Assembly: GCA_964570645.1 (NCBI GenBank)
Contig: CAZNAK010000001.1
Coordinates: 1-28,943, forward strand
DNA: 28,943 bases
DNA from: an uncultured Cytophagales bacterium
GTDB lineage: Bacteria > Bacteroidota > Bacteroidia > Cytophagales > Bernardetiaceae
Reading direction: 5' to 3'
Part shown: positions 17,223-24,637 of the stretch, one piece after another
Position numbering within the stretch: position 1 is the first letter of the stretch
Layout: every line of letters starts with the position of its first letter
The notes under the pieces: generated by a model
What the model was told of the DNA's origin: nothing
What the model saw: the letters and a program-made list of their open reading frames with translations, nothing else
Database searches by the model: none
Position numbers and translations under genes: made by a program

Positions 17223-17591
17223 TTAGTAAGTATTAAACTCGAAAGGAATATCCTCAACCAAATCTGAAAATTCTTCGCCTGCCTCTTCCATATCTTCGTC
17301 ATCTTCATGGTAATACCACATGATGACCGTACCCTCAATTTCTTCGAGCTTCGATAAGATGTCAAGGATCAGTTTGGAAGAAGCCGTATTAAAATATTCA
17401 AGACGAAAGTTAAAGCGTGTCTCAGCTAATTTTTCAGCTTTATAACGCTCCAGCCAGTCCAAAATAGGTTGATAAAATTCTGCCGCATCTTCAGGCAGAG
17501 AACGCCCCGAAATCTCGAAGTGGGATTCTTGCTTGTTGAGGACGACCGCCGGGGTATCTTCTGTTCCGGGAAGGTTGATAACTTCCAGCAT
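17223..17591 (-). CDS. siaC: SiaC-family (DUF1987) phospho-switch protein
   Basis: TEDTPAV, ISGRSLPEDAAEFY.P..DW, LEYFNTASSK (Thr equivalent to the SiaC phosphosite), WYY.EDDEDM.EAGEEF. Confidence 0.92.
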   Translation of the reverse strand: MLEVINLPGTEDTPAVVLNKQESHFEISGRSLPEDAAEFYQPILDWLERYKAEKLAETRFNFRLEYFNTASSKLILDILSKLEEIEGTVIMWYYHEDDEDMEEAGEEFSDLVEDIPFEFNTY

Positions 17592-17640
17592 ATTCGTGTA
17601 TGGTTACGGGTTAGTTAAATTCGTTTTTATTCAGAGAATA

Positions 17641-17648
17641 CAAAAGTA
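17641..17648 (-). promoter_or_regulatory. Candidate -7 box (TACTTTTG) between siaB and siaC
   Basis: Plus-strand CAAAAGTA is TAnnTTTG on the minus strand, in the 72-nt gap. No -33 box seen; could be chance. Confidence 0.3.
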
Positions 17649-17663
17649 CAAAATCTCTCATGG

Positions 17664-18218
17664 TTACTTCATAGTCGGAATGGTGACGGTAACTTTAAGA
17701 GAAAAAAATTTGAGTTCGTCGTTAATTGTTTCCATTTCATAGATGAGTGGGTTTCCTGTTTTTTTGCGCATGTCAATAAAACCAAGCCCAGCCCCTCCTC
17801 TTTCAGAAAGTTTCATGACTTCCTTCAATCGCTTTCGATAAGCGTCTTTTATTTCTGCTTTATCCATTGCGTTTAGGGTCTCAATTTTTGAGGTAATTTT
17901 TTCAACCTCGCCTACCTCCACAGGATTTCCTGTCGTAATAACATAAGCGTCATCGCGCTTTCCCAGTAGAAAAATAGCGTTTTTCTTTCCGTATTTCTCC
18001 TGATTAAACTCAGAAGAATGTCGGTAGATATTTTGAAGAGCTTCCATCATGACGTTGAAAACCTTCCTTTTGATCTTAGATTCTTCTCCAAAAGAATCCA
18101 TGTTCCGTTCTGCCATTGCTAAGACAGACTTCGTGATTTCTTGAGAAAATTCGCCTTCATATACAAGCAACAACTGCTGCTTTAGCATAGTCCGATGAAG
18201 ATCATAAATATATTTCAT
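17664..18218 (-). CDS. siaB: SiaB-family (DUF6272) GHKL-type protein kinase
   Basis: Preferred ATG at 18218 (MKYIYDLH). YEGEFSQE, KRKVFNVMMEALQNI..H (N-box), TGN, SERGGAGLGFIDM..K.G (G-box). Confidence 0.9.
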   Translation of the reverse strand: MKYIYDLHRTMLKQQLLLVYEGEFSQEITKSVLAMAERNMDSFGEESKIKRKVFNVMMEALQNIYRHSSEFNQEKYGKKNAIFLLGKRDDAYVITTGNPVEVGEVEKITSKIETLNAMDKAEIKDAYRKRLKEVMKLSERGGAGLGFIDMRKKTGNPLIYEMETINDELKFFSLKVTVTIPTMK

Positions 18219-18261
18219 GAGCAAAATGTCGGTTAGCGAGCGTTTTGGACGCGAATCTAAT

Positions 18262-19197: not shown

Positions 19198-20883
19198 TTA
19201 GACCTGATTTGCTTCGTCCATTTCCTTGAGTTTACGACGTAAAATCTTACCTACGTTTGATTTCGGCATTTTTTCTGCCTCGATAAAGGCATAGTGTCGA
19301 GGTACTTTGTAGCCCGTTAAGTGCTTTTTACAATGTGCTTTCACGTCTGCTGCGGTCAGTCCTTCCTCTTTTGCTACGATGTAAACTTTTACGGCTTCCC
19401 CAGATTTCTCATCGGGAACGCCAATCGCTGCTACTTCCATCACGCCAGTGTGCAAAGCAACAGCATCCTCTACCTCATTCGGATAAACATTAAAACCTGA
19501 AACTAAGATCATGTCTTTTTTGCGATCCACGATCTTGAAAAATCCATTGGGAAGCATAACGGCAATGTCCCCTGTTTTGAGCCAGCCATCCTCGGTGAGT
19601 ACTCCTTCCGTAGCTTCGGGACGCTTCCAATAGCCTTTCATGACTTGTGGACCTTTACCCCAAAGCTCGCCGCGTTCGCCCTCAGGAACGGGATTACCCT
19701 CATCATCTGCGATGCGTATCTCGGTCGAAGGCATCGGCAGTCCAATCGTTCCATTCTCTTCTGACCCATCCACTGGATTGCAACATAAAACGGGTGAAGC
19801 TTCGGTGAGTCCATAACCCTCTACTAGAGGTACGCCTGTGGTTTGTTGCCAACGGTCGGCAACGGCTTTTTGAACCGCCATACCGCCGCCAACGCAAAGT
19901 TTCAGTGCGCTGAAGTCCACCTCTTTAAAGTCAGGTTGATTTAAAAGCCCATTAAATAAGGTGTTTACTCCTGTAAAAGCAGTGAACTTGTGCTTTTTTA
20001 GCTCCTTAACGAAGCCTGGCATATCCCGCGGGTTGGTAATCAGTACGTTTCTGGCACCAAAGGCCGTAAAAGCAAAACAGTTTACTGTCAGACAAAAGAT
20101 ATGATACATTGGCAGGGCCGTAATCATCGTTTCTTCGCCCTCCTTTGCACGAATATGCATCCAACCTTTGATCTGCTGCATATTGGCGATCATATTACGG
20201 TGTGTCAGTTCGGCGCCCTTTGCCACGCCTGTCGTTCCGCCCGTATATTGAATGAAAGCATTGTCACTACTCTTGACCGTTACGGGGCTGAAAGAGCCGC
20301 TGCTTCCTCTTGAAAGTGCATCGCGAAAAGAAATGGAGCGTGGAAGGCTGTACGCTGGCACCATTTTCTTGATGTTTTTTACGACAAAATTGGTGATTTG
20401 ACGCTTCGGGAAGCCCATCATATCCCCAATATCTGTTACGATAACTGTCTCGATGGAAGTTCTAGGAAGCACTTCCTCAAGTTTACTGGCAAAGTTTGAT
20501 AAGACAACGATAGCCTTTACATCCGCATCCGTAAACTGATGTTCCATTTCATGAACGGTGTAGAGCGGGTTGGTATTCACGATGATCATACCAGCACGTA
20601 ATGCCCCAAAAAGGGCGATAGGGTACTGCAATAGGTTAGGCATCTGGATGGCAATACGATCACCAGGCTCAAGGTTGGTATGGTTTTGCAAAAAGCTGGC
20701 AAAGTCCTTTGAGTGTTGATCTAACTGACTGTATGTCAGCGAAGTACCCATGCAGTAAAAAGATTCTTTGCTAGCAAACTTTTTGAAGCTTTCCTCCAAC
20801 ATATCCACTAACGAATTATACTGATCAGCATTAATTTCATGCGAAACATTTTCAGGATAACGTTCTAGCCAAGGCTTATTCAT
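19198..20883 (-). CDS. fadD: Long-chain fatty acid--CoA ligase
   Basis: AMP-binding motifs YTGGTTGVAKG, EGYGLTEASP, TGDIA, DRKKDMILVSGFNVYPNEVE, PKSNVGKILRR; FadD-type N-terminus (W...YP..V..EI). Confidence 0.93.
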   Translation of the reverse strand: MNKPWLERYPENVSHEINADQYNSLVDMLEESFKKFASKESFYCMGTSLTYSQLDQHSKDFASFLQNHTNLEPGDRIAIQMPNLLQYPIALFGALRAGMIIVNTNPLYTVHEMEHQFTDADVKAIVVLSNFASKLEEVLPRTSIETVIVTDIGDMMGFPKRQITNFVVKNIKKMVPAYSLPRSISFRDALSRGSSGSFSPVTVKSSDNAFIQYTGGTTGVAKGAELTHRNMIANMQQIKGWMHIRAKEGEETMITALPMYHIFCLTVNCFAFTAFGARNVLITNPRDMPGFVKELKKHKFTAFTGVNTLFNGLLNQPDFKEVDFSALKLCVGGGMAVQKAVADRWQQTTGVPLVEGYGLTEASPVLCCNPVDGSEENGTIGLPMPSTEIRIADDEGNPVPEGERGELWGKGPQVMKGYWKRPEATEGVLTEDGWLKTGDIAVMLPNGFFKIVDRKKDMILVSGFNVYPNEVEDAVALHTGVMEVAAIGVPDEKSGEAVKVYIVAKEEGLTAADVKAHCKKHLTGYKVPRHYAFIEAEKMPKSNVGKILRRKLKEMDEANQV

Positions 20884-20918
20884 AGAGTATTTGTGCGTTT
20901 AGTGTGTTTAGATAAGAT

Positions 20919-20926
20919 CAAATATA
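20919..20926 (-). promoter_or_regulatory. Candidate -7 box (TATATTTG) for fadD
   Basis: Plus-strand CAAATATA is TAnnTTTG on the minus strand, 35 nt upstream of the ATG at 20883. Confidence 0.5.
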
Positions 20927-21104
20927 CTAAGAAATAGTACCAAATGAGTACCTGACCATTTAAAATTTGGGATAGCGCTCATTAGGTACCAAGTAAATTT
21001 GGTGTTTTTGACTTATCTCTTATCTTAGAAGACCTGCTGTTAGGTGATGAATACGACTCTAAGTAATGCCTCTGCGTATCAGGATTACCTGATTGTAGAT
21101 AGTA

Positions 21105-21527
21105 TTATTTTCTCACTAACTCTCCTGAAAATTCTGCGGACTGTTCGTTATTTGCCTCCACGGTAACATGAAGGTCTATGGTAGCGGGTATTTCCTGACG
21201 CAGAATCTCCCAGATTCGCATCGCCATACGTGGTGGGGTGGGGACAGTATGATTAAAATCATTGAGGTCGAGGTAGAGGTTTTTATGATCGAAGCGTTCC
21301 TCTACTTTATCCTTAACAAGCTGCTTGAGTTTAGCAAAAGAGAACACCTCTCCCGTACGCGGATTCATTTCTCCTGTCAGCCGTACGGTAAAGTTATAGT
21401 TATGTCCTTTGTAAGCGGGAGAATCTTGCGTACCAAAGACTTCATGATTGACCTGAGCACTCCAATTCGGGTTGTGCGTCGTGTAGAGGGCATTGAAGTG
21501 TGCTTTATGAGAAATCGTTACTCGCAT
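21105..21527 (-). CDS. 6-pyruvoyl-tetrahydropterin synthase/QueD-like T-fold protein with degenerate active site
   Basis: Scaffold matches PTPS (HFNA, NPNWS...N.EVFG, GHNY...V..TGE..P.TG, ERFDHKNL.LD), but AAHRL reads ALYTT, GKC reads GTQ, HGHNY reads KGHNY, TAEN reads TPPR and YET reads EAN. Verified against the DNA; ORF intact. Confidence 0.85.
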   Translation of the reverse strand: MRVTISHKAHFNALYTTHNPNWSAQVNHEVFGTQDSPAYKGHNYNFTVRLTGEMNPRTGEVFSFAKLKQLVKDKVEERFDHKNLYLDLNDFNHTVPTPPRMAMRIWEILRQEIPATIDLHVTVEANNEQSAEFSGELVRK

Positions 21528-21574
21528 AGGAAAAAATGGTTATGAAATATCTCCCTTCTTTGAGGGCTGGAAGG

Positions 21575-22681
21575 CTAGAAATCGCGACGAATATTTTTTA
21601 GTTTCCCATCTACGCTCAATTTGTCCTTGAGCTGTTTCATGGCATCCTCCGCACGCTTGCGTCCCCAGTAGTTTCCATATAACACATGAAACGTAATATC
21701 GTTGTACTGATCGACCAAAATATAGGCTTCACGAAAATCCTCTGCTGCTAATTCATCACAAAACTCCTGTGCCCCTTCCATGTCAGGGAAGTAATTTAGA
21801 TGAACTACCCAATTCTTCTTATCAACGCGATGCCCACGCGAGTTATAAATAAAGTCGTTCATGGGATCAAAAGGTACATATTCGGGGTAGTATGCTGTTG
21901 CTTCCAGAAGCTCTCCCTCTGCGTCTTTTAGCGGAATAAACCAGTCGGTCTGCAAGACCGTAAAAGCAGAAATATCTTCATCTTCTGGGGCCACGTAGAT
22001 ATAGTATGGAGTGCCATTGTCACGAAAAATCTCCTCAGACTCGCCGTCTTTCATGGCATAAGCGGTAATCAATACATTGGATTTTGGGTCTTTATCCTCC
22101 TCAGAGACGATATAACTTTCGGGTGACTTGGGCGCAAGTGCCACAAAGTCAATCTGCCCATCTTGATTGAAGTCCCCAAAAGAAGCGGGACCTGCAAAAA
22201 TGCTAGCAAACGAATAGGGCTGAATATTATCTGGGTCTGTCACATCATAGAGGTTGTAGCAGCGATAGCGGCACGAGTTTACACAATCTTCTCGAAATGC
22301 AAAAAAACAGATATACTTACGTTCGAGGTAAGTAAACTCATAGATGTCCATGAAAGCACTTAAATATTTGACCGTAGAACGTTCTGGACTACAATAAAAG
22401 TTAAATTCCTGCCCATTGATGAGTAAGCCCGTAGGATTCGGACTAAGAATTGGGTGGCTACCTTCAATGTAAATCTGATATACCTCCAAGGAATCTACGT
22501 AAGTTGCATCATAAGATTGAAGGCTAGTATCACCTTGCTCCTTAAAACTATTTACTTTGAGGTGCTTGCTGATCCTTATAGCTTGCTGATTGAGATCTTC
22601 AAGGGAAAAGGTAGTCTGTGCCCCTGAGGAGGCGTAAAAAAAATAAAACAGCGGGAGGAGAAATATAATTTTTTTCATCAT
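21575..22681 (-). CDS. Secreted protein with Dx[DN]xDG (FG-GAP-like) motif and C-terminal SPOR-like domain, paralog A
   Basis: Signal peptide (SGA|Q); FGDFNQDGQIDF; C-terminal beta-alpha-beta-beta-alpha-beta WVVHL..F...EGA...DEL.......YI......FHV..GNY..R..A...L. Confidence 0.8.
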   Translation of the reverse strand: MMKKIIFLLPLFYFFYASSGAQTTFSLEDLNQQAIRISKHLKVNSFKEQGDTSLQSYDATYVDSLEVYQIYIEGSHPILSPNPTGLLINGQEFNFYCSPERSTVKYLSAFMDIYEFTYLERKYICFFAFREDCVNSCRYRCYNLYDVTDPDNIQPYSFASIFAGPASFGDFNQDGQIDFVALAPKSPESYIVSEEDKDPKSNVLITAYAMKDGESEEIFRDNGTPYYIYVAPEDEDISAFTVLQTDWFIPLKDAEGELLEATAYYPEYVPFDPMNDFIYNSRGHRVDKKNWVVHLNYFPDMEGAQEFCDELAAEDFREAYILVDQYNDITFHVLYGNYWGRKRAEDAMKQLKDKLSVDGKLKNIRRDF

Positions 22682-22748
22682 CGTAATGGTCTTGTTATGC
22701 TTACGTTACAAAATCAATACCGTACAAATCAGCATATACCCTTTTTTA

Positions 22749-23843
22749 TTAGAAATTCTTACGGACGTTTAAAACTTTTCCATTTACGCCGAAGTCATTT
22801 CTTAGCTTTTTGTGCATCTCATCTGTTTTTTCTCGATCCCAATAATTACCTACCATGACCATAAAAGTCAGATCGCGATTATATTGATCAATCATTACGT
22901 AAACGTCGTTAATTCCCTCTGCGGCAAGGTCATCTGCCATAGACAAAGCACCGTCAATATCCGTAAAATCCGCTACGTGGACGACCCAGTTTCGCTTTTC
23001 TACCCGAAACCCTTCTGGATTGTACAAGAAGTTATTGCGCGGATCGAAAGAGATGTAAGGTGGGAAATAGGGCTCTGCTTCCAGCGTATTGCCTTCTTTG
23101 TCTTTAAAAGGAAAGAACCAGTCCGCCTCAACGACATTGAAGCTTGATATTTGGTCGTCTGATGACTCCAGAAATATATAGTAAGCACTACCTTCTTTCT
23201 TTAATTGCTCAATTTTACCATCTTGAATCGTGTAAACGGTAGTCAGGCAGTATGATTCTGCATTTTCACGTTGCTGATCTGTTAGGTCTGAGGTAGGCTT
23301 TGGCACCGTACGAACAAAGTCGATTACGCCATCACTGTTAAAGTCTCCAAAAGAAGAGATTTCCCCAAAAATACTGGCAAAAGAGTAGCTCTTCACTTGG
23401 TTAGGGTTTGTAATATCGAACACATTAAAACAACGGTAGCGGCATCCCTTCAGCATACAGTCCTCACGGAACGAAAAGAAATTCAGGTATTTACGTCCCA
23501 GATAAGTAAACTCGTAAATATCCAAAAACATACTCGTACTGATTTTTTTGGACATCTCGACATTACAATAAAACCCCAGGTCCTGCCCATTGATTCTGAG
23601 TCCCATCGGGTTGGGATTCAGAATATGATGATACTGCTCTCCGTGTACAAAATAAAGCTTGAAAGGAACCGTAGCATTGGCATAAATGGTAAAAGTAGTG
23701 TCACCAACTTCCTCGATACCTGTTGCTTGCGGACGCTGTGCGATGCGCGCTGGTTCCTGAGAAATTTTTTCAAACGTGTAATTTTGTGCGCTTAATGGAA
23801 GGCAAAGAATGAAAAAGGCGAAGAAAAAGGATAGTATTTTCAT
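22749..23843 (-). CDS. Secreted protein with Dx[DN]xDG motif and C-terminal SPOR-like domain, paralog B
   Basis: Signal peptide (LSA|Q). Colinear with paralog A over its full length (ILNPNPMGLRING, DIYEFTYL..KY, FREDC...CRYRC, YSFASIF, FGDFNSDG.IDF, DWF.P.KD.EG, FDP.N.F.YN..G.RV.K.NWVVH, DQYN, GNYW). Confidence 0.8.
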   Translation of the reverse strand: MKILSFFFAFFILCLPLSAQNYTFEKISQEPARIAQRPQATGIEEVGDTTFTIYANATVPFKLYFVHGEQYHHILNPNPMGLRINGQDLGFYCNVEMSKKISTSMFLDIYEFTYLGRKYLNFFSFREDCMLKGCRYRCFNVFDITNPNQVKSYSFASIFGEISSFGDFNSDGVIDFVRTVPKPTSDLTDQQRENAESYCLTTVYTIQDGKIEQLKKEGSAYYIFLESSDDQISSFNVVEADWFFPFKDKEGNTLEAEPYFPPYISFDPRNNFLYNPEGFRVEKRNWVVHVADFTDIDGALSMADDLAAEGINDVYVMIDQYNRDLTFMVMVGNYWDREKTDEMHKKLRNDFGVNGKVLNVRKNF

Positions 23844-23852
23844 GTTGATAGA

Positions 23853-24637
23853 TTAGTTGGCTCCCTCGGGGCGCACAAGCCGATAGTTGGTTGACTCGGA
23901 ACGTCGTCCGTCAGGAAAGCTGAAATAAATCTCAAAGTCAATAAAAGTGCTAATTCCAAAGAATACAGTTAAATAATAAGAAAGTTTTCCATTTCGGAGG
24001 GTAATTCGTTCTTCCTCAGCTCCCGGCGTTCCTTTTCTGATGAGTTCATTCTGTCCGCTGCTATACCGTCCGATGATGACCAGTTCCACGTCATTTGTGA
24101 TTGCGCCGCTTGGATCTTCATAGTCAAACTCCTGAAAGAAAATAGTCGCCGAGTCGCCGTTGTCCCCAAATGGGCGTGAGTTAATACCCTCTGGAAAGGT
24201 AAGGGAAATATTTTGATCGCTGATGCTAGGTGCCGGGTTGCTACGTCCCGAGAGTTGAATTTTAATGATTGGGTTGTCCGCATCATTGGTAAAGAAGGCG
24301 AGTCTCGCCGTTTGGTCGCCAAAGGTTTGGGGCGCAAAAGTCACCGTAAAGGATGCATTTTCACCTTCAGCAACACTTCGCCCACGCTGTTCTCGTTATC
24401 TACCGTGACCCGTCCTATCTCTAAAGTTCCAGTCCCGACGTTGGTTACCGTAAAGTTGGCACTAAAAGTCTGTCCAAAATCTACGCTCGGAAAGTTTACC
24501 GTCTGCGCGGTAGAGTCTCCACGGATCGCAAGTGTTGTTCCTCGCAACTGGAGGGCAGGCTCTCCGCCCGACTCATATCCCGTCACACAAGCTGTCAGGG
24601 AAATACAAAAGAGGAAAATCAATGCTCTTATATACAT
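23853..24637 (-). pseudogene. Frameshifted lipoprotein with an Ig-like ASH/choice-of-anchor-D-type domain (split into the 98-aa and 163-aa track ORFs)
   Basis: Lipobox LTAC at the 24637 start. The first half of the Ig-like domain (FPSVDFGQ..ANFTVTNVGTGTLEI..VTV) is in one frame. The second half (SVAEGENASFTVTFAPQTFGDQTARL.F.TND.DNP) is in the -1 frame from about 24385, upstream of the track's GTG at 24344. A 1-nt (or 3n+1) loss near 24380-24395 restores one ORF of about 260 aa. Confidence 0.75.

Follow-up and report, generated by a model that had tools for sequence, protein, structure and literature searches.

A PTPS-family protein with a half-lost active site and a paralog without Asp-His: a candidate split synthase in Bernardetiaceae

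An open PTPS-family gene and its surroundings

The stretch analysed here, called the window, comprises 28,943 nucleotides from an uncultured Cytophagales bacterium of the family Bernardetiaceae (contig CAZNAK010000001.1 of assembly GCA_964570645.1). On its reverse strand lies a gene (P0001; Table 1) whose product belongs to the PTPS family (PF01242/COG0720, T-fold) both by profile and by fold. As the original prediction held, the frame runs at full length from an ATG with zero stops or frameshifts, and Pfam PTPS covers residues 7-135 of the product at 9e-17 (61.6 bits against a cut-off of 22.4). The NCBIfam models 6PTHBS and QueD place it far under both of their cut-offs; TIGR03367 (QueD) gives 42.5 bits against a required 89.25. 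Among solved structures, the closest in sequence is rat PTPS, 1b66 (4e-20, 34% identity), and since the HMMER alignment is ungapped, the two proteins can be compared residue by residue. An AF2 model (pLDDT 93.1) ranks rat, human and C. elegans PTPS at the top of a Foldseek search (TM 0.83-0.84), above QueD, and superposes on 1gtq and 3i2b at TM 0.84 and an rmsd of 2.5 Å. The structural motifs named at the outset are all in place and, on this model, the scaffold is intact, again as foreseen.

Table 1. Features of the PTPS-like gene, with neighboring genes of the window; rat PTPS numbering is given for residues that correspond
Feature	Position	Strand	Details
PTPS-family T-fold CDS, clade C, P0001	21105..21527	(-)	140 aa, ATG start
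Stop codon of the PTPS-like gene	21105-21107	(-)	
Tyr15	21483..21485	(-)	position of rat Zn ligand His23; family alignments
Q34-DSPAY-K40-G-H42	21402..21428	(-)	replaces C-x5-H-G-H; rat PTPS and family alignments
R78-FDHKNLYLD-87 block	21267..21296	(-)	rat PTPS and family alignments
Asp80-His81	21285-21290	(-)	rat Asp88-His89, putative trans-acting half of the intersubunit triad
Thr97-Pro98-Pro99	21231..21239	(-)	replaces Thr105-Thr106-Glu107; pocket Glu gone
Glu124-Ala125	21153..21158	(-)	replaces Tyr132-Glu133; pterin-anchoring Glu gone
Secreted protein, weak C-terminal SPOR	21575-22681	(-)	~365 aa, directly upstream of the PTPS-like gene
Secreted protein, weak C-terminal SPOR	22749-23843	(-)	~365 aa, paralog of the preceding
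SiaC-family phosphoprotein (PF09345)	17223-18224	(-)	adjoins a DUF6272 protein; part of a Sia-like module

The two paralogous SPOR genes accompany the PTPS-like gene in the MAG of its closest relative (P0013) and in G011, where the gap between the SPOR gene and the PTPS-like gene is 2 bp, and not in distant relatives, so that the trio is confined to the genus. Cotranscription of the three genes is possible, with no evident functional link. A promoter and terminator scan of positions 20850-24000 gave a site count no higher than in shuffled sequence. Public runs that contain DNA of positions 20900-22700 are microbial-mat metagenomes only, from a single 2018 study, with no RNA run listed; the best-matching run may be the sample from which the MAG derives.

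Active-site residues and the clade that shares their loss

Subfamilies of COG0720 are sorted by their Cys/HGH motif, and some are left with no assigned function (PMC5041015, PMC9894224); we took the subfamily motifs from these two papers, that of PTPS-II being C-x5-H-G-H (PMC5041015). At this place the window protein reads Q-DSPAY-K-G-H. Compared with the rat enzyme, AAHRL has become ALYTT (His23 to Tyr15), GKC has become GTQ (Cys42 to Gln34), and HGHNY has become KGHNY, with His48 replaced by Lys40 and His50 retained as His42, so that one of the three Zn-binding His (rat 23, 48 and 50) is present. The two Glu of the PTPS-II pocket are also gone, with TTEN changed to TPPR (Glu107 to Pro99) and YET to EAN (Glu133 to Ala125). 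Each of these substitutions had been listed from the sequence beforehand, and each is confirmed by the ungapped 1b66 alignment and by family alignments. A realignment that restored the ligands would have undone this description; none was found with rat PTPS or in the family alignments. Glu124 lies one residue ahead of the Glu133 column, in a beta-strand, and is not a realigned Glu133; its position is Phe or Ala in P0002 and in the G011 copy (L004), the two closest relatives in the tree.

The original prediction was that the catalytic machinery had been specifically erased. This stands for the cis Zn His, the Cys and both Glu, but not for Asp80-His81, which are kept. The RFDHKNL block had been regarded as merely structural; it carries the counterparts of rat Asp88-His89, and with them two members of the catalytic triad, and the machinery is thus half, not fully, erased.

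We sought relatives by word-indexed and exhaustive searches and by scanning 401 genomes from the order. Few share the substitutions. They form an eight-member group, clade C, made up of the window protein, P0013, P0002, P0004, P0014 and the copies of genomes G011, G198 and G112; a fragment, P0026, is also among them. P0013, from another MAG in which the order of genes is the same, is 92% identical to the window protein, and P0003 is identical to the G011 copy and comes from the same genus. The G198 and G112 copies belong to another family than the window's. In a tree of 87 PTPS sequences built with IQ-TREE, clade C is monophyletic (support 100/99) on a long stem (0.91), and its sister (97/80) consists of the canonical PTPS-II-like proteins P0005, P0006, P0008 and P0012, not of the resident Cytophagales paralogs. 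Judged by this tree, the window protein descends from PTPS-II-like enzymes, and since the same changes define a clade with such support, the substitution pattern is not chance. Outside clade C, another single-domain relative, P0098 (136 aa), is also degenerate, with Phe, Thr, Cys and His at the cis positions and Asn-His as its dyad.

Within the clade, the position of His23 is Tyr in seven of eight members and Phe in G112. Cys42 is lost throughout (Gln, Glu, Ala or absent), and the position of His48 varies among Lys, Asn, His, Gln and Glu. Glu107 and Glu133 are present in deeper members and gone from the window's subgroup; at position 107, Glu is still found in most of the other members. His50 and the Asp-His pair are retained in all eight, and RFDHKNLYLDL, with 10 of its 11 residues invariant in a four-sequence alignment, is the most conserved block of the clade.

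The loss of several catalytic residues and the long stem branch are what one might expect if a redundant duplicate were decaying neutrally, as a young pseudogene whose frame happens to be open. We regard this as very improbable, and the selection tests contradict it. Eight lineages, at 46-92% identity, have open frames, and the fold is predicted with high confidence. Between the window gene and that of P0013, there are 60 synonymous codon differences and 11 amino-acid differences (omega 0.02-0.04). For G198 against P0014, omega is 0.06-0.07; only these two close pairs could be used for pairwise estimates because dS is saturated in most pairs. A codon model (GY+F1X4) gave an omega of 0.05 for clade C, compared to 0.03 and 0.09 for two canonical groups of paralogs, A and B, described below. 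Clade C thus appears, from codon comparisons, to be under strong purifying selection (omega about 0.02-0.07), and the proposed check, that the substitutions should define a conserved clade with dN/dS below 1, gave a positive answer.

A conserved operon context for clade C was not found, and the loci differ between lineages. The neighbors are RimM/NuoH for P0002, DUF192/YidD for P0004, LytTR for the G198 copy and a His kinase and a semialdehyde dehydrogenase for the G112 copy. The window gene is also unlinked to the other PTPS gene of its genome (see below). Operon logic therefore gives no support to any partnership between the two.

The Asp-His pair in paralogs and in fused proteins

Genomes of the Bernardetiaceae (family f1) normally have two canonical C-x5-HGH paralogs; the group A gene usually shares an operon with the gene for GTP cyclohydrolase I, and the group B gene stands alone. 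A whole-genome search of the window genome, a MAG that is 80% complete, found, besides the window gene, one further PTPS gene only, a group B copy on contig C187; a group A gene was not found in this assembly. Upstream of GTP cyclohydrolase I (FolE) on contig C212 (G000:C212, L126, 553-1648), where relatives have group A, there is a gene for a MerC-family membrane protein, and because that slot is filled, group A seems to have been lost.

The original prediction had called for a canonical paralog in the genome. There is indeed a second PTPS gene, but it is not intact. The C187 protein keeps His23, Cys42, His48, His50, Glu107 and Glu133, with the motifs AAH, C-x5-HGH, PSCE and ETE, and in place of the VDHKNLN of its group it reads VEGKYLN, that is, Glu-Gly for Asp-His. 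It has therefore lost just what the window protein has kept.

Table 2. Asp-His dyads (one-letter code) of PTPS copies in Cytophagales genomes of families f1 and f18
Genome(s)	Group A	Group B	Degenerate Asp-His copy
Window genome	not found	EG	window gene
G011	GH	DG	clade C
G198	NH	HQ	clade C
G112	DQ	HH	clade C
Genus g76, five genomes	degenerate copy, next to FolE, DH kept	HY	group A
31 f1 and f18 genomes	all copies found DH	all copies found DH, but DY in genus g6	none

The same complementarity recurs wherever a cis-degenerate Asp-His copy is found (Table 2). In nine of nine such genomes of f1 and f18, every cis-intact paralog is without Asp-His, while among the 31 genomes of these families without a degenerate copy, Asp-His is found in every copy in 29, and Asp-Tyr in one copy in the other 2. 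In the group A proteins of G011, G198 and G112, just one residue of the dyad is lost. In some genomes, a single Asp-His donor may serve both cis-intact paralogs, A and B. A wider look at the 120 closest group B homologs in a large protein collection found Asp-His in 111; four of the nine exceptions (P0172, P0173, P0174 and P0175) are the closest relatives of the C187 protein, and P0174, with Asp-Gly, comes from the same metagenome run as the clade C member P0002.

In genus g76, it is the group A protein that is degenerate (L119, G127:C41; also G184, G248, G325 and G333), with Tyr at 23, Tyr at 42, Cys at 50 and Asp-His kept. This copy arose independently within group A, which makes two independent origins. 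The group B protein of the genus (L102, G127:C163) has, in addition to its His-Tyr dyad, a C-terminal extension of ~20 aa. The two exceptions among the 31 genomes are the group B proteins of genus g6 (L038 in G016:C51 and L040 in G015:C2), which have Asp-Tyr with no degenerate partner and a fully canonical group A beside them. Either group A lends its dyad to group B there, or Tyr can replace His89.

How much weight can this pattern bear? A naive table of genus by paralog (7/7 against 1/29) gives a Fisher p of about 1e-6, which overstates the case. There are only four to five independent contrasts, all in the same direction (sign test p=0.125), and the association between a degenerate copy and loss of Asp-His elsewhere is thus consistent and not statistically established.

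Fused proteins provide a further set. The exhaustive search returned many tandem PTPS proteins of two or three domains, 270-420 aa in length (P0015-P0163, e.g., P0041, P0028, P0058, P0019 and P0066), with named examples from MAGs of Nitrospirota, Fimbriimonadia and Cyanobacteria. Often, one of the domains has lost its cis residues or its Asp-His dyad. Every domain was checked for the cis residues (His, Cys, His, His) and for the dyad, and we then considered the two-domain proteins in which exactly one domain is cis-intact. Asp-His is kept in both domains in 11, in the cis-intact domain only in 13, in the cis-degenerate domain only in 12, and lost from both in 0 (Fisher p=0.002). In 21 of 21 fused proteins with a cis-intact domain that has no Asp-His, a domain bearing it is present in the same chain. 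The empty class, with no Asp-His anywhere, is what a requirement for the dyad in trans predicts. The commonest replacement of His89 in the fused forms is Tyr. A single ring-on-ring geometry is not universal, since the 13 proteins of the second class pair a fully intact with a fully dead domain.

A composite active site and its alternatives

What activity would these genomes need? GTP cyclohydrolase I (FolE), a PF00351 pterin-dependent aromatic amino acid hydroxylase and FolB are present in the window genome, FolB was found in five of five genomes searched, and no true QueC turned up in the window genome (G000), G011, G001, G198 or G127. From this combination, the PTPS activity needed is of the PTPS-II kind, leading to a biopterin-type cofactor, and the need for it persists in genomes whose chains each have an incomplete site. 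Both PTPS genes of the window genome, and fused forms as well, are automatically annotated as 6-carboxytetrahydropterin synthase, a function that is unusable here because QueC is absent. We rejected a QueD (PTPS-I) role for the window protein, given the absence of C-x3-HGH, the low TIGR03367 score and the missing QueC, and a FolB-replacing (PTPS-III) role, given the absence of E-x2-HGH and the presence of FolB in all five genomes.

Nar 1994 and Ploom 1999 reportedly placed Cys42 of PTPS on subunit A and Asp88/His89 on subunit B of the other trimer. The PTPS Zn site is buried between three adjacent monomers (PMC7546909), and Burgisser et al. 1995 (cited in PMC2229834) use the word "intersubunit" for the catalytic triad in their title. 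The putative placement of Asp88/His89 on the opposite trimer draws on those reports, that title and the contacts of a model of our own.

The model joins three C187 group B chains to three window chains, each with its own alignment. It scored 0.88 against 0.00 for the best of three controls. Of 80 solved complexes, 58 reached that mark, as did 2 of 110 mismatched pairs; this pass may reflect memory on the part of the predictor, since PTPS homo-hexamers are already solved. Runs agreed on 100% of contacts, with a partner pLDDT of at least 86. The predicted interface is ring-on-ring, head to head, and involves residues 10, 12-14, 38-43, 80-83, 86-87 and 125-127 of the window protein and residues 9, 11-13, 32-33, 35, 37-42, 79-82, 86 and 130-131 of B. 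In it, Asp80-His81-Lys82-Asn83 of the window protein contacts Pro32-Cys33, Asn35 and Ser37-Asn42 of B, a stretch that includes the catalytic Cys33 and the Zn ligands His39 and His41; the expected error for the pair of B His39 and window His81 is 0.8 Å. The degenerate Glu79-Gly80 loop of B is placed opposite the dead site of the window protein. We take the model to speak for compatibility and geometry, not for a preference of hetero- over homo-assembly. The loss of Thr-Thr-Glu may, weakly, fit homotrimeric rings, in which that segment would line no pocket.

We lean, by a modest degree, toward a split, hetero-hexameric PTPS that makes a biopterin-type cofactor and in which the window protein is the obligate trans-acting subunit. 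The residue pattern, the purifying selection, the co-occurring complementary losses and the confident ring-on-ring model are what we observed; the physical assembly of B with the window protein, its activity and the identity of its product are what we infer. Canonical PTPS is a dimer of trimers in which one subunit supplies the three Zn His, the Cys and the pterin-binding Glu in cis, and the Asp-His pair reaches in from a subunit of the opposite trimer to complete the site. In the window protein the cis half is gone (two of the three Zn His, the Cys and each Glu), whereas the trans half, Asp80-His81, is retained. We imagine a group B trimer and a window-protein trimer stacked head to head, making three composite sites, with Zn, Cys and pocket from B and Asp-His from the window protein, and leaving three dead sites. 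Such an enzyme would yield the PTPS-II-type intermediate on the way to a biopterin-like cofactor.

It has to be asked whether such a subunit completes catalysis or only assists. A non-catalytic regulatory or scaffolding subunit, tuning the stability, zinc economy or activity of the paralog, would account for the preserved fold and oligomer interface residues, and a mixed hexamer would save three of six zinc sites. However, a scaffold would not need the dyad, which sits in the most conserved block of the clade, and a partner subject only to regulation would be expected to keep its own Asp-His loop, which is exactly what group B has lost. We consider this possibility improbable. Because Asp-His is kept in that block and the paralog has lost exactly Asp-His, a role in catalytic completion, rather than in regulation or scaffolding, is likely as far as the sequences go. 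Of the three options originally offered, a regulatory subunit in hetero-hexamers with the true enzyme comes closest: the hetero-hexamer fits best of the three, but the regulation does not, and the supposed true enzyme has itself lost Asp-His. Another, a binder of a different purine or pterin, is weak for the window copy because both pterin-contacting Glu are lost.

One can also envision a neofunctionalized homo-hexamer with a zinc-independent activity or ligand built on Tyr15, His42 and Asp80-His81, beside a group B enzyme made self-sufficient by another base (e.g., Tyr82, or Tyr at 89 elsewhere). Tyr15 is nearly invariant in clade C, where His42 and Asp-His are kept, and the window and group B genes are unlinked. 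The Asp-Tyr of the g6 group B proteins, which have no degenerate partner, and the frequency of Tyr at 89 in the fused forms mean that a replaced residue might act as the base and leave B self-sufficient. Yet this explanation gives no account of why Asp-His is lost precisely where a degenerate Asp-His copy exists, nor of why fused proteins are never wholly without Asp-His. Moreover, both pocket Glu are gone, and the pocket of the clade varies at 42 and 48, unlike a new conserved site. We think it unlikely, and we return to the trans-acting subunit.

As a known system, the PTPS-II homo-hexamer (rat 1B66/1GTQ, human 3I2B and C. elegans 2G64) is the best match. The window protein shares its length, its T-fold, the Asp-His loop, the predicted head-to-head ring contact and a BH4-type pathway context; it differs in its loss of C-x5-HGH, of two of the three Zn ligands, of the Cys and of both Glu and in its predicted need for a complementary paralog. 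QueD/PTPS-I (E. coli 4NTK) and PTPS-III share the Pfam family and fold with it at a greater distance (E 1e-6, TM about 0.72), whereas their motifs, C-x3-HGH and E-x2-HGH, are missing. SCO6650, of the PTPS-IV type (PDB 3D7J; Foldseek rank 22, 15% identity), is a hexameric T-fold homolog on a different branch, tied to a tailoring gene cluster, while the window protein is of PTPS-II-like descent; we take SCO6650 to be without the canonical catalytic residues.

A closer parallel in logic comes from the prozymes of trypanosomatids, those of AdoMetDC and of the deoxyhypusine synthase heterotetramer, in which a dead paralog, kept under selection, is required by an impaired one; in the latter enzyme, active sites span the contact between the paralogs. 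Like a prozyme, the window protein has lost its own site and appears to be under purifying selection, and dependence of a partner is predicted. Unlike the prozymes, which are unrelated in fold, chemistry and organisms, the PTPS pair would be incomplete on both sides, in a complementary manner, and is known from sequence and a model. If our reading is true, the pair would be a bacterial T-fold counterpart of these systems. A literature search found no published description of a hetero-oligomeric or split PTPS.

One consequence concerns annotation. Either gene, taken alone, would pass for a working PTPS in a pathway reconstruction, and if the site is in fact split, the seemingly canonical copy expressed alone is predicted to be an inactive enzyme. 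If coassembly is obligate, the two genes would offer a compact, easily testable case of a shared active site split between duplicated subunits.

More broadly, and more tentatively, PTPS-type synthases may repeatedly have split their intersubunit site between chains or domains, at least twice in the Cytophagales and also in fused proteins of Nitrospirota, Armatimonadota and Cyanobacteria, so that obligate hetero-oligomers would be widespread; we hold this a little short of probable. Were it true, a widespread and unrecognized architecture would lie among genes annotated as ordinary "QueD," with complementary degeneration locking paralogs to each other. Complementary losses that arose more than once would bear on how obligate hetero-oligomers evolve.
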